A stretch of DNA of 64,000 nt from Planctomycetota bacterium. Its GTDB lineage: Bacteria; Planctomycetota; SZUA-567; H5-PLA8. The stretch is taken from NCBI GenBank assembly GCA_038227875.1, contig JBBRPR010000037.1, positions 20,502 through 84,501 on the forward strand, in the 5' to 3' direction. Position numbers and translations under genes: made by a program. Under the pieces are notes generated by a model. That model saw nothing but the letters and a program-made list of their open reading frames with translations. It had not been told where the DNA came from and did not search any database. Positions 3,601-19,002 of this stretch are shown one piece after another. How positions within the stretch are numbered: the stretch's first letter is position 1; each line of letters begins with the position of its first letter.

Positions 3601-4521
3601 ATGCGGCAGGGAAGCGGTTCGCATTCGTTTGATGTCGAAGAAAACTGGGCCAAGTTGCCGGCCGGCGTCACACTGGGTTACACCCACGGCGTCGTGATCG
3701 ATGCCAAGGACAACGTCTACATTCACAACCAGAGCAAAGATTCGGTCATCGCGCTCGACCGCGACGGCAAGTTCCTCAGCTCATGGGGTCCGGAATTCGC
3801 CGGCGGCGCGCACGGCATGTACCTCAGCAAGGAAGACGGCGTCGAGTACCTCTACCTCGCCGATCCCAACCGCCACATCGTCGTCAAGACCACGCTCGAC
3901 GGCAAAACCATCTACACGCTGGAAGTGCCGCCGCTGCCCAACGTCTACAAGACCGCCGACCTCTACAAGCCGACCGACACTGCCGTCGCGCCCAATGGCG
4001 ACGTGTATGTCTGCGACGGTTACGGCCAGAGCTGGATTCACGTCTACGATAAGAAGGGCACGTGGATCCGTTCATGGGGCGGCGCCGGCAGCGAACCGGG
4101 CAAGATGAAGTGTCCGCACGGCATCTGGATCGACACCCGCAAGTCGACGCCCCGCGTCTACGTCGCCGACCGCGGCAACAACCGCATCCAGATTTTCTCG
4201 CTGGTCGGAGAACATCTCGGCTTCGTGACCTACGATCTGCGCCTGCCGTGCTGCTTCTATCAATACGGCACTGAGCAGTACATCCCCGACCTGCACAGCC
4301 GCGTCACGATCCTGGACGAACACGACCGCTTGATCACCCACATCGGCGACGTTCCCGGTGCGTGGACCAAGACCGGCTGGCCCAACGTGGCGAAGGAAGA
4401 GCTGAAGCCCGGCCTGTTCAGTTCCCCCCACGCCTGCGCGCTGGATTCCAAGGGCGACCTGTACGTGGTCGAATGGATCGCCGTCGGCCGCATCACCAAG
4501 CTCCGCCGCGTCGCCCACTAA
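3601..4521 (+). CDS. NHL-repeat six-bladed beta-propeller protein (PAL/peptidylglycine lyase-like family)
   Basis: Repeated PTDTAVAPNGDVYVCDGYG, CPHGIWID, YVADRGNNRIQIF, SPHACALDSKGDLYVVEW; GGAGG RBS upstream. Confidence 0.85.
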   Translation: MRQGSGSHSFDVEENWAKLPAGVTLGYTHGVVIDAKDNVYIHNQSKDSVIALDRDGKFLSSWGPEFAGGAHGMYLSKEDGVEYLYLADPNRHIVVKTTLDGKTIYTLEVPPLPNVYKTADLYKPTDTAVAPNGDVYVCDGYGQSWIHVYDKKGTWIRSWGGAGSEPGKMKCPHGIWIDTRKSTPRVYVADRGNNRIQIFSLVGEHLGFVTYDLRLPCCFYQYGTEQYIPDLHSRVTILDEHDRLITHIGDVPGAWTKTGWPNVAKEELKPGLFSSPHACALDSKGDLYVVEWIAVGRITKLRRVAH

Positions 4522-4550
4522 ACCCTTCGTAGGCGGCAATCAACAGTACG

Positions 4551-4585
4551 CGCGCGCCAGGAAGTTCTGGCGCGCGTTCTATTTC
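4551..4585 (+). terminator. Intrinsic terminator
   Basis: CGCGCGCCAG-gaagtt-CTGGCGCGCG then ttctatttc. Confidence 0.7.
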
Positions 4586-4672
4586 ATGCGCTCGACCCTC
4601 TTCGCACTCGTGCCCAATTTCGCTTTCAAAATTCTGGCGGGATCGCAGCGCCTCGTTCGTTAGCCAATTGCT

Positions 4673-13168: not shown

Positions 13169-15217
13169 TTAGTGCTTATCCGGCTGCAGCTGCATATACC
13201 GGTAGTACACCTCCAGGCACAGCGCGCCGATGGCCGTTGAGCCGACGCGGCCCCAGCATTCGGAGTAGGTGCCCATCGGGTCCCAGCTGCCGTCTTCGTC
13301 GCCGCCTTTGCGCTGGTTGGGGACCAGCGCGGCTTTCAGGCCTTCGTTCCACTGCTTCCAGATATCCCCGCCCTGTTGGAAGACACAGAGCGTGCCGTAG
13401 TACCAGTAGTACATGTCCAAGGTGTTCTTGTGCTGCTTGTCGCCGTCGTCCTGCCACTTCGGCACGCCGCCGTCTTTGATGAACAGCTCGACGCTGGACT
13501 GCAGATCTTCCTTCTTCCAACCCATGAACTGGCGGCAGAGATTCCCGATGGCGCAGCGGCGGTGATTGGTGCCGGCGCCCTTCTGGTATTCAAAACGCGA
13601 CGCCGGACCGTAGCCGGAATCGGGCGCGGCGTTCTTCTGTTCCATCTGGTCGATGAACTTGATCGCGCCTTCGAAAGCGCTGGCGGGAACGTGGATGCCG
13701 GCGACCTTCGCGGACTTCAGCGCCATCACGAACCAACCGGTGACGGAAATATCGGCGGCCATCTTCGGCTGGTAACGCCACGCGCCGGTTTCCGATCCCG
13801 CGCCTTCGGCGTGGGATTCGACGCAGTAGGTCACGGCCCGCGTCGCGGCGGCGCGGGTTTCTGGAATGTTGCCCATGCCCGCGGCTTCGGAGAGTGCCAT
13901 CGTGGCCATCGCGCAGCTGTAGCCCAGGCCCAATTCGGAGCTGTCGGTGCGGTCGAAGACGCAGCCCTTGGCGTCCTGCATGCTCTTGAGCCACGCCACG
14001 GCGCGCTTGACGTTGTCTTTGTACTGGCCGACTTTTTCCGTGTGGCCCGCGCCGAGAAACGCCAGCAGGGAGAGCGCAGTCACGGCGGTATCGCATTTCA
14101 CTTCGCGCCAGTACGTGGCCTTGCCGCCGTCGTACTTGCGGGAATCCCAGTGGCCGTCGGCTTCCTGATGATACGCCAGCCACTGCAGAGCCTTGTCGAC
14201 GGCGTTCTCGGTCATCTTCGAACCGCCGTGCCGCTTGACCATCAAGCGGCGTCCGCCGCCGTTGCGCTGGCCGAAGCTGCCGCGGCCGGCGCCCGTGCCG
14301 ACGCCGACGCCGGTGCCGTCTCCCCCGCCCCAGCCGCCGCCGGTGCCTTTGCTGGCGACACCGCCGACGCCGATCAGGTCTTCCATCCCCATGCCGCCCA
14401 TGCCGCCACCGCCTTCGGGTTCATCGTTGCCTTCCACCGAGTGGAACATCCTGGCGTCGGGATTGCCAAAGGCGCTCTGGGTGTCCGGTCGGTCCGGGTT
14501 GATGGTTTCGAAGTGGTCGCCGAGTTCCGCCTTGGCCAGCAGGTCCGGCGGGACGACGATATCGGATGCTTCCTTAGATGTAGGATCGGTGGCGGGAGTG
14601 TCGTGCTTGGACTGCAGCGCCTCGAGCGCCGATTCGGGCTTTTCCTTCTGCTGTTCCTGTTCGACCTGCGGACGCGCGGCCAGTTCGGTCATCATGATCA
14701 CGGCATCGTCGTTCTTGGGAAGATCGATCGACATCGTCACCAGTCCGGCCAGTACAATGATGAGAATATGGAGCGCGCAGGAGACGGCCCACCACGGCGC
14801 GGCGCCCAGCTTGGCGAACAGGCCGCCGCTGGCGCCGACTTCGACGGGTTCTTCCTGGCCGGTTTCGGCGGCGAGTTCCGCGGCCAGCGCGTCGGGATCG
14901 GTTTCGTGCTCGATGGCTTTCATGCGCCGCGAATCCTGGCTGGTCACGGCCCGCGGACGATCGGGAGTCTGTCGCATTTCGGTTAACCTCTTGTTCGCGT
15001 TCAGATCAAATCCGTCGGAGATCCGCCGCTGACCCAATGTGTTTCCCAGCAGCGCCAGCACCTGGCGACGCCGCTCAAATTCTTCCAGGCAACCGGCGCA
15101 GACGGCAATGTGCGAATCCAGCGACGCGGACAGGTCCGGCGAAGCCTCGCCGTCCAGGACCGAGCGGATGGAAGCAATCGCCTCTTCGCAGTTGATGAAT
15201 GTTGTCGAATCGCTCAT
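13169..15217 (-). CDS. zf-HC2 anti-sigma domain + TM + prenyltransferase/squalene-cyclase-like repeat barrel
   Basis: N-terminal C..HIAVCAGC; TM WWAVSCALHILII; ALQWLAYHQEADGHW, AVAWLKSMQ, YYWYYGT, DGSWDP, LCLEVYYRY. Confidence 0.82.
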   Translation of the reverse strand: MSDSTTFINCEEAIASIRSVLDGEASPDLSASLDSHIAVCAGCLEEFERRRQVLALLGNTLGQRRISDGFDLNANKRLTEMRQTPDRPRAVTSQDSRRMKAIEHETDPDALAAELAAETGQEEPVEVGASGGLFAKLGAAPWWAVSCALHILIIVLAGLVTMSIDLPKNDDAVIMMTELAARPQVEQEQQKEKPESALEALQSKHDTPATDPTSKEASDIVVPPDLLAKAELGDHFETINPDRPDTQSAFGNPDARMFHSVEGNDEPEGGGGMGGMGMEDLIGVGGVASKGTGGGWGGGDGTGVGVGTGAGRGSFGQRNGGGRRLMVKRHGGSKMTENAVDKALQWLAYHQEADGHWDSRKYDGGKATYWREVKCDTAVTALSLLAFLGAGHTEKVGQYKDNVKRAVAWLKSMQDAKGCVFDRTDSSELGLGYSCAMATMALSEAAGMGNIPETRAAATRAVTYCVESHAEGAGSETGAWRYQPKMAADISVTGWFVMALKSAKVAGIHVPASAFEGAIKFIDQMEQKNAAPDSGYGPASRFEYQKGAGTNHRRCAIGNLCRQFMGWKKEDLQSSVELFIKDGGVPKWQDDGDKQHKNTLDMYYWYYGTLCVFQQGGDIWKQWNEGLKAALVPNQRKGGDEDGSWDPMGTYSECWGRVGSTAIGALCLEVYYRYMQLQPDKH

Positions 15218-15244
15218 GACCTGTGTGTTCCTGAATTCATCCGC

Positions 15245-15823
15245 TCAACTTTTCAGCAGCGAGGCCAATTTCTGTGCGAGCATTCCGTCGGCGCGCGTCA
15301 GTCGGCTGCGCACAGTTCCGGACGGGATGCCGAGCTTCGCGGCGATCTGGTCGGTCGACATTTTTTCCCAGTACCGCAGGATCACGACGTCGCGGTACGG
15401 TTCGGGCAAGGCATCGACGGCGCGCAGCACGGCCGCGTCATCGGGGCCGGGAATGCTGGGCGCGTGCGGAGCCCGGCGGTCTTCGGGCGCTTCGATCGCC
15501 TGCAATTTTTCCGTCGAGAGACGTTCCTCTTTCGCGCGACGGCTGCCGCGGCGCCAGGCCAGCGCGGTGCAGCGGTTGATTTCGCGCAGCCACACTCCGA
15601 GTTTTGCCGTGTCGCGAAGCCGGCCGATGTCGAGGAACGCCTTGCAGAGCGTTTCCTGCGCGATGTCTTCGGCGTCCTGCTGTTTATCGACGATGGTCAG
15701 AGCCTGGTGGACGAGGCCGGCGCGGAAGCGTTCGAGCAGAATCCAGAAATGGTCGACCGCCGCGGCGTCGGGATTCGCGCGGAGACCTTCCAGAGCTTCA
15801 ATCGCCATGTCCGTCGTGTGCAT
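15245..15823 (-). CDS. ECF RNA polymerase sigma factor
   Basis: DAEDIAQETLCKAF, WLREI, LPEPYRDVVILRY, IPSGTVRSRLTRA; start uncertain (15808-15844). Confidence 0.92.
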   Translation of the reverse strand: MHTTDMAIEALEGLRANPDAAAVDHFWILLERFRAGLVHQALTIVDKQQDAEDIAQETLCKAFLDIGRLRDTAKLGVWLREINRCTALAWRRGSRRAKEERLSTEKLQAIEAPEDRRAPHAPSIPGPDDAAVLRAVDALPEPYRDVVILRYWEKMSTDQIAAKLGIPSGTVRSRLTRADGMLAQKLASLLKS

Positions 15824-15909
15824 TAAAACTCCCGAAAACACCACGCTCCATAAGTAAGGCTGCTTGCCGCGTCCGTTTCGCTCCCGAAAAATTGAAAATA
15901 GTTTTGGGA

Positions 15910-16082: not shown

Positions 16083-16601
16083 CTATGTGGGCATCGGCCG
16101 GTAGTCACTGCCACGCTCAATGCGCCGGAAGTCGCCGTTCTCAAGAAACGTAATCAGGCAATTCGCGGCGTGCTGGGCGATTTGCGGAACCTGCTTGCCG
16201 CCATACGGCCAGATCGAAGTCAGGCGCGGCGTCATCTTGCCGATCAGGTTCATCGTCGCCATCTTGTTGGGATCGGCGACGAGATAATCGCCCACTCCAC
16301 TTTCTCCGGCATGCAGACTTCGGCGCAGAAACAGAATTGGAATATCTTTGACCACTGGATCGAGCAGCGGCATCAGGTCCTTGGCGCCGAACGTATTGAT
16401 GACCACGATGGCTGGCTGGGTTTGCGCGGTCTGAGTCGACGCGAGGACGACGGCCAATTCTTTGAGATTGGATGCAAACGGCAGCGGCGCGATCTTGCTC
16501 TTGAACAGCAGTCCGCGGATGGTCGTGCAGATTCGTGTCTGCTCGTTCCCGGCAGCGGCTTCCGCTTCAAAGAAAACCGGTATGCGGCGCATAGGGCTCA
16601 A
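16083..16601 (-). CDS. Hypothetical protein, possibly a degenerate receiver (REC-like) fold
   Basis: TTG start overlaps the upstream TGA; pattern FASNLKELAVVL...PAIVVIN...DIPILFL resembles CheY-like beta2-beta4. Confidence 0.6.
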   Translation of the reverse strand: MSPMRRIPVFFEAEAAAGNEQTRICTTIRGLLFKSKIAPLPFASNLKELAVVLASTQTAQTQPAIVVINTFGAKDLMPLLDPVVKDIPILFLRRSLHAGESGVGDYLVADPNKMATMNLIGKMTPRLTSIWPYGGKQVPQIAQHAANCLITFLENGDFRRIERGSDYRPMPT

Positions 16602-18235
16602 CTGCTTGACGTGGCTTCACCCGTCAAACCCGTGCCGAGCAGGGACATCTTGACGTACGCGGCAGCGAAGTCTTTGAAGAACTCGTCCTGATTGTTGGCG
16701 TAGCGCAGGATGATCTCCCGGCACTCGGGATCCTTGATCATGTCCTTGTCGGTCGAGAGCATGTTCTTGGTGTTACCCGAGATCAGCGCTTTGTAGTAGC
16801 TGTTGTTGAACTTGTACCAGTCGTCGGTGAACGGAATACCTTTCAGCCGTCCGATGGTGTGAGCGCCGGAGAGCGCGACCATCTCCTGGACAGTGAGACC
16901 GGTGTCGGCAAAGCGATCCTTCAACTGCGTCGTCGTCAGGTTTTCCAGATCGAGCACATTGGCGGGCGTGTACTTATCGGAATCCACGCGGCCCAGCGGC
17001 ACGTGGATTTCCGGCCCGCCGCACTTCTCAACCGCCACCGCACCGCCGAGGGCGATCAAGTCGGCCCAGGAAACTTCCGGGAAACGTTCCTTCACCGGCT
17101 TGAGCAGATTGATTGGGATTTCCATGCCGCGATTTTCGTAGCGCGACAGTTGTTCCGGCAGACGCAGCGAACCGTCGGCGCCACCGGTTTTCATGCGCGC
17201 GCTGTACTTGCCCGCGTCGTGAAACGCGGCGCGCAGAAAGAGCGGTGCCTTCTGTTGCGTGACGACGTCGCAGAGCGCCCGGTTGACGCGGCGGCGCAGG
17301 TCGCCTTCGCGGTCGATGATCTGCGTCTGGTCGTAGAGGCGCACGACCTCATGCAAATGATACGATCCGCTTTTGCCTTTCAGCAGAGCGTCGTGGGTGC
17401 GGCCCAGCTGGATCCGGTTTTTGAGGTGAAAATACACGGCGTCGGAAATCAGCAGCGAGGCCTGATACGTCTTCGTTGCCGATTCGATGCGGCTGGCCAT
17501 GTTGACGTTGTCGCCGATCACGGTCATCTGGCGGCGGTTGGGATGGCCCAGTTCGCCGAGGATCGCTTCGCCAAAATGGATGCCGACGCCAATGCGGAAT
17601 TCGACGTCGAAATTGCGCTTCAGATAAACGTTGAGCGACTTGAGTTCGTCGACCATTTCCAGACCGGCGTTGACGGCGTTGAAGCAATTGATCTGCGGAT
17701 CGGAGGTGTTGATGCCGAAGAGCGCCATCATGCCGTCGCCCATGTACTTGTCGATGTAGCCTTCGTTGCGCAGCACCGCTTCGCCCATCTGGTAGAAATA
17801 GCGGTTGAGAATATGGATCGTGTCGTACGACAGGTGGCGTTCGGAAAAGACGGTGAAGTCGCGGATGTCCGTGAACATGATCGCCAGGCGCGTTTCACGC
17901 CCGGTCGTGACCTGCGGGCAATGGATCACCAGATCCGCGTCGCCATCGTCGAGCACCAGGCGGCGGACCGAGACCGGTCCGGTCACGCGGGTCTGGCAGG
18001 CGAGGCGGATGTTCTTCTCGAAACCTTTGATGTCGGCGAGTTTTTGTTCAGCGGCATTGCGTGGCGTGCAATTGTCGAGGTTATCGAGCACCATCACGCG
18101 GCAGGTGGAACAACGCGCCGTCGCACCACACACATGCATGTGCGGTACTTTGTTCTTCAACGCGATATCGAGCAGGGACAGGCTCTGGTCCGTCTCTTCA
18201 AACGTCCCGTCCTGATGAAAATCAATCAACGCCAT
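16598..18235 (-). CDS. 2Fe-2S ferredoxin - class III adenylate cyclase - heme peroxidase fusion
   Basis: CGATARCSTC...RLAC; FTDIRDFT, IDKYMGDG, TVIGDNVNMASRIES; LRAAFHDAG, SWADLIALGGAVAVEKCGGP, LGRVD, MVALSGAHTIG, FFKDFAAAYVKMS. Confidence 0.92.
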   Translation of the reverse strand: MALIDFHQDGTFEETDQSLSLLDIALKNKVPHMHVCGATARCSTCRVMVLDNLDNCTPRNAAEQKLADIKGFEKNIRLACQTRVTGPVSVRRLVLDDGDADLVIHCPQVTTGRETRLAIMFTDIRDFTVFSERHLSYDTIHILNRYFYQMGEAVLRNEGYIDKYMGDGMMALFGINTSDPQINCFNAVNAGLEMVDELKSLNVYLKRNFDVEFRIGVGIHFGEAILGELGHPNRRQMTVIGDNVNMASRIESATKTYQASLLISDAVYFHLKNRIQLGRTHDALLKGKSGSYHLHEVVRLYDQTQIIDREGDLRRRVNRALCDVVTQQKAPLFLRAAFHDAGKYSARMKTGGADGSLRLPEQLSRYENRGMEIPINLLKPVKERFPEVSWADLIALGGAVAVEKCGGPEIHVPLGRVDSDKYTPANVLDLENLTTTQLKDRFADTGLTVQEMVALSGAHTIGRLKGIPFTDDWYKFNNSYYKALISGNTKNMLSTDKDMIKDPECREIILRYANNQDEFFKDFAAAYVKMSLLGTGLTGEATSSS

Positions 18236-18393
18236 GCGGCGGATGTTAACAGAATTTCCATGCACGTCGAAGATGATTTCTTGACTTCTCACTGCCCTGT
18301 CGGCATCGTTTTACTCTATCGTCCCCTTCCCCGGTTTTGCGCCGTACTCCGCAACGCGGAAGGCAACCTCACGCTCAGGAGTTTGAACAGTCC

Positions 18394-19002
18394 ATGGCAT
18401 TGGTCACCGTCACCAGCAGCGGCGCGGAGCCGCGATCCTACGAAATCAACAAACCCCGCATCGTCTTCGGACGCGATTCGAACAATTCCGACGTCCATCT
18501 CGACAATCTGGCCATCTCCAAGAACCACTGCGAAATCGTCAAAGACGACCAGGGCTACCTGCTGCGCGATCTGAAAAGCTCCAACAAGACCTATGTGAAC
18601 GGGAAGGAAATCCAGGAGCACCGTCTCTCCAACGGCGACGAGATCGTCGTCGGAAATTTCAAGATGACGTTCTCCGGCGCCGTCGCCGTTGAGTCGCGCC
18701 CCAAGCCCGTGGCTGAGGATTCTTTTGAACCGACGCTCCAGCTTCCGCCGGAAATGATCCGCAAGAAGATGGAGGAAATGCAGCGCGAGAAGGAGCAGGG
18801 CGTCTCCGCCACCCGCGCCGCCGCCGCGACCACCGCCAAGCGCCCGACCGCGTCGAGCTCCCAGGACAATCACCCCGCGACCAGCCAGAACGCGCAGTCC
18901 GGATCGGGATCCGGCAATTCCAACATGGCCGTGATCATCGTCGTCGGCGCGATCATCGCCGTGATTGTGGTCAACGTGATCATCGCGCTGAGGCAGCACT
19001 AA
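18394..19002 (+). CDS. FHA-domain protein with C-terminal TM anchor
   Basis: FGRD, ISKNHCEI, LRDLKSSNKTYVNG; AGGAG RBS; hydrophobic C-terminus. Confidence 0.88.
   Translation: MALVTVTSSGAEPRSYEINKPRIVFGRDSNNSDVHLDNLAISKNHCEIVKDDQGYLLRDLKSSNKTYVNGKEIQEHRLSNGDEIVVGNFKMTFSGAVAVESRPKPVAEDSFEPTLQLPPEMIRKKMEEMQREKEQGVSATRAAAATTAKRPTASSSQDNHPATSQNAQSGSGSGNSNMAVIIVVGAIIAVIVVNVIIALRQH

Follow-up and report, generated by a model that had tools for sequence, protein, structure and literature searches.

The locus examined here raises the question of whether a bacterium joins, in a single polypeptide, a ferredoxin, an adenylate cyclase and a haem peroxidase resembling those of plants, and what such a protein would do. 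The gene lies in a 64,000-nucleotide stretch of DNA from a Planctomycetota bacterium (assembly GCA_038227875.1, contig JBBRPR010000037.1, positions 20,502 to 84,501), here called the window. An earlier note on this DNA, made from its letters alone, had described the three-domain open reading frame (ORF) at 16598-18235 as a candidate peroxide- or redox-gated synthase of cyclic AMP (cAMP). Judged by sequence comparison, it is one conserved bacterial gene that joins a predicted ferredoxin, an adenylate cyclase and a plant-like haem peroxidase, and its product most likely turns hydrogen peroxide (H2O2) or redox state into a cAMP signal.

Gene and domain layout

The ORF listing contains a single unbroken frame, 16598..18292 on the minus strand, that would encode 564 amino acids (aa) from a GTG codon. 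Because homologues are 523-576 aa long and begin with MA(L/Q)I(D/E)F, the ATG at 18235 is the likely start, giving a protein of 545 aa (Table 1). Pfam coordinates are cited in the 564-aa numbering, and residue positions (C36, H459 and others) in the 545-aa numbering. The single three-domain frame claimed by the earlier note was recovered with all three Pfam matches above cut-off: Fer2 (PF00111) at 30-104 (E 9.6e-9, 35.5 bits, cut-off 21), Guanylate_cyc (PF00211) at 133-308 (E 4.5e-22, 79 bits, cut-off 21.9) and peroxidase (PF00141) at 342-534 (E 5.6e-41, 141.3 bits, cut-off 27). The motifs it had read from the sequence (CGATARCSTC...RLAC, FTD, GDG, IDKY, MTVIG, VNMASR, LRAAFHDAG and LSGAHTIG) were likewise all found in the translation. 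The highest 19-residue Kyte-Doolittle mean is 1.08, which indicates no transmembrane-like segment; by its sequence, the product is soluble and cytoplasmic. A structure prediction, also suggested in the earlier note, was made with AlphaFold2 on an alignment of 118 proteins (described below) and gave a mean predicted local distance difference test (pLDDT) of 91.7 and a predicted template-modelling score (pTM) of 0.71, with dips at the two linkers only. A Foldseek search with this model returned domain-wise matches, with no multi-domain match among the matches listed.

Table 1. Features of the three-domain gene and of neighbouring genes, in window coordinates. Residues follow the 545-aa numbering.
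Feature	Coordinates	Strand	Remarks
Whole three-domain gene	16598..18235	-	545 codons plus TGA stop (16598-16600); soluble, no transmembrane-like segment
Predicted [2Fe-2S] ferredoxin domain, residues 1-105	17921..18235	-	PF00111; adrenodoxin / ISC Fdx type
Fer2-to-cyclase coupling segment, residues 88-120, VSVRRLVLDDGDAD...	17876..17974	-	Conserved, length nearly constant
Class III (IIIb-type) cyclase catalytic domain, residues 112-300	17336..17902	-	PF00211
Variable cyclase-peroxidase linker, residues 301-310	17306..17335	-	pLDDT 67; site of the feared chimeric join
Haem peroxidase domain, APX-R lineage, residues 311-545	16601..17305	-	PF00141
Downstream 172-aa gene	16083..16601	-	TTG start overlaps the TGA stop (TTGA), or ATG 5 nucleotides past the stop
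ECF-type sigma factor	15245-15844 (within 13169-15844)	-	
FHA-domain protein, 221 aa	18337-19002	+	Divergent

Distribution of the three-domain form

The earlier note had named a chimeric join near 17300-17350 as the finding that would undo its reading, and the evidence rules such a join out. Among the best 120 protein clusters from a 5.8-billion-protein collection, 117 carry all three Pfam domains, at identities from 94% down to 41% and on contigs of up to 1.69 Mb; the exceptions are P0020 and P0031, which have no Fer2 match, and P0117 (324 aa), which has no peroxidase. Source names of the clusters include Planctomycetota, Phycisphaerales, Tepidisphaeraceae, Myxococcota, Leptospiraceae, Leptospira semungkisensis and L. 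perolatii. The best 80 loci of a species-genome collection include 13 that are full-length, labelled as Planctomycetota, Tepidisphaeraceae, Phycisphaerales, Gemmatimonadota, a metagenome-assembled genome (MAG) labelled Cytophagaceae, Leptospirales, L. alexanderi, L. weilii, L. noguchii and L. gomenensis. The cyclase/peroxidase joint is bridged by a 310-nucleotide contig (X3, record 10) that comes from another study and matches 17233-17542 with 4 differences. An 8414-nucleotide contig from run X1 covers 16400-18500 with 0 differences and is not counted as independent, because X1 may be the source run. The frame holds no stops, and GC content at third codon positions is even over the three domains (0.73, 0.80, 0.80) and resembles that of neighbouring genes. 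That the source genome (G000) is a draft of 176 contigs, 88% complete, is the point in favour of an assembly chimera or a decaying gene; set against the shared architecture, the full-length loci and the bridging contig, we regard the probability of either as negligible.

Within Planctomycetota, the three-domain form is rare. Matches at E <= 1e-40 occur in 25 of 401 sampled genomes; only three of these (G000, G009 and G111) match over all three domains, and in the other 22 the match is confined to residues 1 to about 305. By contrast, of the 22 genomes in the Leptospira genus to which L. alexanderi belongs, 20 have a full-length ortholog at 79-100% identity. Database names for the three-domain protein are generic ("peroxidase family protein", "adenylate cyclase", "guanylate cyclase").

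Ferredoxin and cyclase domains

Residue conservation was counted in an alignment of the window protein and the 117 three-domain clusters (118 proteins) and, for the first two domains, also in 152 Fer2-cyclase cores of all architectures. The retention of Cys, Asp, His and other active-centre residues across the 118 proteins argues that the active centres are under purifying selection.

The [2Fe-2S] motif of the earlier note, backed by the PF00111 match, comprises four ligand cysteines, C36, C42, C45 and C80 (spacing CX5CX2CX34C), which are kept in all 118 three-domain proteins and in all 152 cores. The best NCBIfam ferredoxin match is TIGR02007 fdx_isc, and among solved chains 1I7H FERREDOXIN comes closest (2.4e-9), ahead of adrenodoxin homologues and putidaredoxin. 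We assign the domain to the adrenodoxin / ISC Fdx type, with predicted binding of a [2Fe-2S] cluster. Putidaredoxin and adrenodoxin donate electrons to haem enzymes. The segment that couples this domain to the cyclase is conserved across the 152 cores (R92 in 130, L93 in 128, D96 in 118 and D99 in 126), and the distance from D99 to F121 is 22 residues in 82 of the 118 three-domain proteins, with a range of 20-28.

The cyclase is complete, as had been claimed, with catalytic residues kept in 108-118 of the 118 proteins. Both metal-binding aspartates (D123, D167) are invariant, the adenine-selecting K163 is present in 115, position 238 is Thr in 108 and Ser in 10, and the transition-state residues N245 and R249 are kept in 116 and 117, respectively. 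According to Linder and Schultz, subclass IIIb reportedly combines the adenine Lys with a Thr/Ser that replaces the class IIIa Asp; the window protein has this pair in addition to the metal aspartates, the Asn/Arg couple and a PF00211 match above cut-off. The nearest solved chains are 2W01, 6FHT, 3R5G (CyaB) and 1WC0 (CyaC), with target-normalised Foldseek TM-scores of 0.85-0.89 against CyaB and CyaC. Pseudomonas aeruginosa CyaB and S. platensis CyaC share the cyclase fold and the Lys/Thr substrate pair, but their regulatory domains are unrelated to Fer2 or peroxidase. The domain thus has the full residue set of a homodimeric adenylate cyclase with the IIIb Lys/Thr pair, and is predicted to synthesise cAMP. 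Beltz et al. also class ferredoxin-linked cyclases as IIIb (PMC4821796).

The adenine Lys is less constant in the wider family, being kept in 89 of 152 Fer2-cyclase cores overall versus 115 of 118 in the peroxidase class. Many peroxidase-free cores have Asn (31), Asp (10) or Gln (6) in its place, and part of the family may lack activity or produce a different nucleotide.

Relation of the peroxidase domain to APX-R

The assignment of the third domain to the peroxidase superfamily is borne out by its Pfam score and by nearly invariant catalytic residues. Distal R335 and H339 are present in 115 and 117 of the 118 proteins, proximal H459 in 118, D496 in 116 and N368 in 101. The best solved match is cytosolic ascorbate peroxidase (APX; 2.4e-41), with target-normalised Foldseek TM-scores of 0.87-0.88. 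Cytosolic APX of soybean or pea (1OAF, 1APX) has the same distal Arg/His and proximal His/Asp, but its Trp41 and Trp179 are replaced by Phe here and all three of its ascorbate-binding residues are missing. Position 338, equivalent to APX Trp41, is Phe in 87 proteins, Tyr in 29, Trp in 1 and Ala in 1; position 469, equivalent to Trp179, is Phe in 94, Met in 10, Tyr in 7, Ile in 5 and Leu in 2. The loop from the proximal His to position 469 has 9 residues in 114 of the 118 proteins versus 15 in APX, and it is because of this deletion that APX Arg172 is missing. In alignment with a solved APX chain, Lys30 becomes Gln and Cys32 becomes Lys. The residues predicted to bind haem and split H2O2 are retained and the ascorbate site is gone, so that the domain would need another electron donor.

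A search with the peroxidase domain only gave 147 matches at E <= 1e-5 among 692 candidates. They include metagenomic proteins of 213-270 aa, plant cytosolic APX and "putative L-ascorbate peroxidase 6", the name carried by ascorbate peroxidase-related proteins (APX-R). The published signature of APX-R is Arg38, Phe41, His42, His163 and a residue other than Arg at 172, and that of APX sensu stricto is Arg38, Trp41, His42, His163 and the ascorbate-binding Arg172 (PMC8069737). The window protein shows R335, F338, H339 and H459, with no residue aligned to Arg172, and thereby has the APX-R signature; Phe at position 41 and the deleted Arg172 loop argue against APX sensu stricto. KatG is likewise rejected. 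TIGR00198 scores 61.1 bits versus a cut-off of 770.25, and the NCBIfam KatG matches as a whole are sub-threshold (61-67 bits versus cut-offs of 770 and 981); moreover, the protein has one peroxidase lobe and a 9-residue loop versus 50. Tabulated across groups, the fusion domains, 20 stand-alone metagenomic proteins and the peroxidase of locus L056 have R/F(Y)/H, Phe at position 179 and a 9-residue loop; plant APX6 and chlorophyte APX-R have R/F/H, Phe and a 6-residue loop; cytosolic APX has Trp, Trp and 15 residues; and the N-terminal lobe of KatG has Trp, Trp and 50.

The earlier note had proposed a phylogeny of this domain against APX, APX-R, KatG and cytochrome c peroxidase (CcP). Trees were built with the first three, rooted on the N-terminal lobes of two KatGs (L082, L084), and without class II, class III, hybrid B or CcP sequences. 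In a quick tree of 114 rows, an 83-row clade with 99% support in the Shimodaira-Hasegawa-like approximate likelihood ratio test (SH-aLRT) contains all fusion domains, the short metagenomic proteins, eukaryotic APX-R and chytrids, and leaves cytosolic APX outside. A careful tree (85 rows, 240 columns, LG+C20+F+G4) was inferred after dropping 29 of the 114 rows, namely 22 near-duplicates and 7 with long branches or odd composition (P0239, P0206, P0209, P0146, P0138, P0113 and P0104). It groups the fusion domains with APX-R at 100/100 support, excludes cytosolic APX, and recovers eukaryotic APX-R at 100/99. Together with the Phe changes, the short loop and the published signature, this upholds the likeness to APX-R that the earlier note had seen.

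The branching order inside the APX-R-like clade is weakly supported in the careful tree, and an approximately unbiased (AU) test did not reject the 29 fusion rows as one clade against the 25 named eukaryotic and outgroup rows (p 0.324). Two arrangements are compatible with these sequences: bacterial domains may be sister to eukaryotic APX-R, or APX-R may be nested among bacterial domains. With the KatG root, the whole clade falls inside eukaryotic class I, which would suggest transfer from a eukaryote; we do not press this reading because the outgroup branch is long (1.70) and many rows carry no taxon. Zamocky et al. put APX-R next to class III (PMC4232752); the placement found here is relative to APX, APX-R and KatG.

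Plant and algal APX-R of the Arabidopsis APX6 type are ascorbate-independent class I peroxidases (PMC8069737, PMC7825652) that share with the window domain the signature, Phe in place of Trp179 and a short loop after the proximal His. Unlike them, the window protein is bacterial, lacks a transit peptide, is fused to Fer2 and cyclase domains, and has a loop of 9 rather than 6 residues. APX-R are single-domain plastid proteins of green eukaryotes, and we therefore file this part of a bacterial fusion protein as APX-R-like rather than as APX-R.

Two further kinds of protein were seen in the same searches. L056, a Bdellovibrionales MAG locus, encodes at 3965-4648 (+) a stand-alone 227-aa peroxidase of the APX-R-like clade, between genes for an RlmL-like methyltransferase and a pyrophosphatase; free bacterial members of the lineage therefore exist. 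We considered this locus as a split version of the system and rejected it, since neither a ferredoxin nor a cyclase gene adjoins that of the peroxidase. In gene models from grasses (P0384-P0389; 640-665 aa), a chitinase (PF00182) is combined with an APX6-like peroxidase; these models may be merged neighbouring genes.

A conserved core with exchangeable modules

Many genome loci match residues 1-300 only, and Pfam scans sorted 19 such proteins into four groups. In the first, of about 310 aa, Fer2 and cyclase stand by themselves (L006, L013). The second adds an FNR-like NAD_binding_1 domain to the pair (L011, L020, L021, L024, L025; spirochaete MAGs) and the third a globin (L029 of Candidatus Parabeggiatoa, L033 of Bradyrhizobium altum, L036 of Terriglobia), while in the fourth DUF2769 precedes Fer2-cyclase (L026, L032). 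A search with residues 1-305 against 1.84 billion representatives then gave 700 matches at E <= 1e-30. Our census covers the best 150 of the 700, comprising 142 scanned with Pfam (E <= 1e-5) and 8 already-known three-domain proteins.

A peroxidase is attached to 17 of the 150 cores, one of which is N-terminally truncated and has no Fer2 match. Globins are found on 25 (16 C-terminal, 7 N-terminal and 2 in other arrangements), FNR-like NAD_binding_1 on 8, Rieske domains on 7 (one also with four CDGSH units), YceI on 3, and CDGSH only, a ferric-reductase-type haem membrane domain, DUF2769 and DUF4079 on 1 each. Fer2 and cyclase only were recognised in 79, of which 24 have unassigned extensions, and 7 have no Fer2 match. 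Domains that bind redox cofactors (haem, flavin or Fe-S) make up 59 of the 64 recognised extra domains. Several of the 29 N-terminal extensions examined contain 4-7 transmembrane-like segments, some with His; these include the representatives P0375, P0376, P0349, P0360, P0381 and P0378 and the alphaproteobacterial L045, L046, L047, L050, L052, L053 and L060, which have 5-7 such segments upstream, several of them with His.

The stretch between cyclase and peroxidase is variable, the distance from L294 to P331 ranging over 30-50 residues among the 118 proteins. A quick tree of the cores places most of those with a peroxidase in a single clade of 61 rows (88% support), which also contains FNR-like, YceI and N-terminal-globin forms. 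Overall, the predicted Fer2-cyclase pair is the conserved core of these proteins, and the peroxidase is one of several exchangeable modules that would serve as input. For this reason the two metal centres, which the earlier note had placed on either side of the cyclase, are not equal flanking sensors.

A joint of the peroxidase domain to any other bacterial signalling output was not found among proteins of at least 579 aa in a word-index-dependent search; the 15 matches of that length are KatG, the plant chitinase-domain models and other eukaryotic proteins. Three odd relatives of the core stood out (P0364, P0339, P0287): one with the order protein kinase-Fer2-...-globin and no Pfam match to a cyclase domain, a four-CDGSH-Fer2-cyclase-Rieske protein and a 664-aa Fer2-...-globin-cyclase protein. 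On the core tree, the Fer2-cyclase proteins with a YceI-like domain at the C-terminus (P0276, P0283, P0291) group as a single clade. Polyisoprenoid lipids are ligands of YceI proteins, and such a domain would fit a quinone-type input.

Precedents among haem and ferredoxin cyclases

Haem domains are known to control class III cyclases, as in soluble guanylate cyclase (H-NOX) and the globin-coupled adenylate cyclase HemAC-Lm of Leishmania. Unlike the window protein, both use gas-binding haem folds and lack an Fe-S domain. We know of no peroxidase fold that acts as a sensor. The closest precedent is the ferredoxin-associated cyclases. Beltz et al. (2016) describe 30 class IIIb cyclases in which a ferredoxin lies between a cytochrome-b-like six-transmembrane anchor and the catalytic domain, and the anchor resembles di-haem cytochrome b subunits (PMC4821796). 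In Sinorhizobium meliloti CyaC, which carries a [2Fe-2S] cluster, two haem B make activity redox-sensitive via ubiquinone, and a figure legend crediting Wissig et al. 2019 describes the enzyme as "activated after oxidation by quinones" (PMC10463352).

The window protein resembles CyaC in having a ferredoxin directly N-terminal of a class IIIb catalytic domain and a haem module in the same chain. The haem module of CyaC is an N-terminal, quinone-linked six-transmembrane di-haem-b anchor, whereas the one predicted here is a soluble C-terminal peroxidase fold, and the window protein has no transmembrane-like segment that could form such an anchor. The alphaproteobacterial cores L045-L053 are 39-41% identical to the window core and L060 is 34% identical; the link to CyaC is drawn from shared architecture and from the identity of these same-architecture loci, not from the CyaC sequence itself. 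In kind, the window protein is thus not new: class IIIb cyclases coupled to a ferredoxin and regulated by redox state are known. What appears not to have been described is the use of a peroxidase as input, the range of exchangeable modules, and a bacterial lineage resembling APX-R. The earlier note knew of no characterised protein with this architecture, and full-text literature searches likewise returned no paper on the Fer2-cyclase-peroxidase combination.

A proposed redox switch and its rivals

We propose that the Fer2-cyclase pair is a sensor-effector core in which the redox state of the cluster would set the activity of the cyclase dimer, as proposed for CyaC, and that the C-terminal domain would be its exchangeable redox input. 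H2O2 would oxidise the peroxidase haem to compound I/II, and the tethered ferredoxin would serve as the reducing substrate of the peroxidase, so that peroxide drains the cluster. The oxidised cluster would then alter cAMP output, with activation expected by analogy with CyaC, which is activated after oxidation. The switch would be reset when a reductase or ferredoxin of the cell reduces the cluster again. The cAMP would act through the cyclic nucleotide (cNMP)-binding proteins of the genome, for which G000 has 12 PF00027 matches. We judge this chain of events, which leads from peroxide by way of the haem and the state of the [2Fe-2S] cluster to cAMP synthesis, to fall slightly short of an even chance of being correct.

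Several observations support it. The Fer2-cyclase segment is conserved in all architectural classes and the peroxidase linker is variable; the ferredoxin is of a type that donates to haem enzymes; and recognised extra domains almost always bind redox cofactors. The restriction of the peroxidase domain to this signalling output, among proteins of at least 579 aa, is weak evidence in the same direction. Peroxide or redox control of cAMP is something that we infer, and the idea is strengthened both by the sister proteins that swap the peroxidase for other redox-cofactor domains and by the reported redox regulation of the ferredoxin-coupled S. meliloti CyaC (PMC10463352).

Other observations weigh against this proposal. 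The cofactors, and electron transfer from cluster to haem, are predictions from residues and folds, and in the chain the cyclase separates the two redox domains. No recognised extra domain is present in 79 of the 150 nearest representatives (24 with unassigned extensions), so the cluster may sense oxidants directly and the peroxidase may be unneeded for sensing. The census itself favours the peroxidase class, since the 150 were ranked by likeness to the window protein. Peroxidase-bearing cores do not form one clean clade: the quick, poorly resolved core tree implies at least 11 state changes, and P0330 lies across a branch with 99% SH-aLRT support, which suggests that the module may have been shuffled or repeatedly lost. 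The sign of the cAMP effect would follow the CyaC figure legend, by analogy, and no conserved neighbour gene hints at a pathway in the 13 full-length loci and the window. A complex prediction for Fer2 (1-105) and peroxidase (311-545) with haem and a 2Fe-2S cluster gave no answer (score 0.01) and is neutral.

Alternatively, the peroxidase could be a direct allosteric haem sensor, in which a change in that domain passes through the linker or an interface to the cyclase and the ferredoxin only resets the haem. Globin-coupled sensors act allosterically, and globins take the same C-terminal place in sister proteins; the conserved haem catalytic residues and a pTM of 0.71, suggestive of some defined domain packing, would also suit such a sensor. 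On the other hand, the 30-50-residue linker to the peroxidase is poorly conserved while the Fer2-cyclase segment is conserved in every class, the FNR-like, Rieske and CDGSH domains at the same position are electron carriers rather than ligand sensors, and a globin N-terminal of Fer2 (7 of 150) suits a link to Fer2 over one to the cyclase. We therefore consider direct allostery unlikely. The presence of globins in place of the peroxidase (25 of 150) also raises the idea of a sensor for gases or small ligands, in which ferrous haem, maintained in that state by the ferredoxin, would bind O2, NO or CO, and peroxide would not be the signal. This is the least probable of the functional alternatives, as the peroxide-splitting distal Arg-His pair is kept in 115 and 117 of 118 proteins and the proximal His-Asp pair, which favours ferric or ferryl haem, in 118 and 116.

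The two activities might instead be unlinked, with the peroxidase protecting the cluster or detoxifying peroxide and the Fer2-cyclase pair sensing O2, NO, iron or the reductant pool. The 79 representatives that have no recognised extra domain are consistent with this, as are the 227-aa L056 peroxidase of the same clade, which stands alone among housekeeping genes, and the fact that the window gene is the only PF00141 match in G000. Yet several phyla keep the fusion whole, as do 20 of the 22 genomes in one Leptospira genus (79-100% identity), and alternative redox modules at the same site argue for a functional link. Unlinked activities thus seem improbable, if somewhat less so than a gas sensor.

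Implications for peroxide sensing

Known bacterial peroxide sensing proceeds by oxidation of cysteine (OxyR type) or metal (PerR type) in transcription factors. We tentatively suggest, as a possibility that we would rate below the switch itself, that Fer2-cyclase proteins are a large, unrecognised family of "plug-in" transducers from redox to cyclic nucleotide, in which one [2Fe-2S] switch reads a peroxidase, globin, FNR-like flavin, Rieske, CDGSH or haem membrane anchor, and that the peroxidase form is a catalytic haem sensor of H2O2 that writes cAMP. If so, it would be a third route of bacterial peroxide sensing beside thiol and metal sensors, and a haem peroxidase wired to a second-messenger enzyme would follow a different logic: fast, catalytic and self-resetting. 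As the protein is soluble and of moderate size, the hypothesis is directly testable.

The peroxidase domain adds a deep bacterial group to the APX-R lineage. The portions of the publications cited here describe APX-R from green eukaryotes only (PMC8069737, PMC7825652); this would be the first bacterial branch and would reopen the question of APX-R origin. An H2O2 sensor would likewise be present in nearly all species of one Leptospira genus, and Leptospira peroxide defence has been tied to virulence (PMC8638851). According to the same source, two adenylate/guanylate cyclase genes of L. interrogans, LIMLP_00130 and LIMLP_02085, are up-regulated when perRA and perRB are both mutated. Neither "heme peroxidase" nor "ascorbate peroxidase" was found when a 2023 review of oxidant defences in Leptospira was searched for these terms (PMC10294975).

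Genomic neighbourhood

The window gene is one of 7 PF00211 matches in G000. The 172-aa gene directly downstream is probably co-transcribed with it in the window. Pfam gave no match for this gene, whose paralogous family occurs in 11 of the 17 genomes from this bacterial family, G000 carrying 3 copies. We rejected it as a dedicated partner, because no homologue lies beside the three-domain gene in the 13 other full-length loci and the family was not found in G009, which has the three-domain gene. The flanks of the G009 ortholog are unrelated to both the FHA gene and the 172-aa gene of the window. Clustering of neighbours in the 13 full-length loci and the window gave no family common to different phyla, shared neighbours being confined to the Leptospira loci, and a conserved operon partner is therefore rejected as well. 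A scan for promoters and terminators returned counts no higher than in shuffled sequence, and a look for RNA data covering the stretch listed none.

Other features of the neighbourhood were recorded. For the 172-aa protein, ESM Atlas features offer a weak lead to Orn/Lys/Arg decarboxylases, namely to their receiver-like N-terminal wing (score 0.92, 166 shared features). The neighbours of the three-domain gene also include an extracytoplasmic function (ECF)-type sigma factor and, after it, a 682-aa anti-sigma-like protein that combines zf-HC2 at its N-terminus with a squalene-hopene-cyclase-like / TED-like repeat domain. Finally, the divergent gene on the other side encodes an FHA-domain protein that ends in a C-terminal hydrophobic tail.

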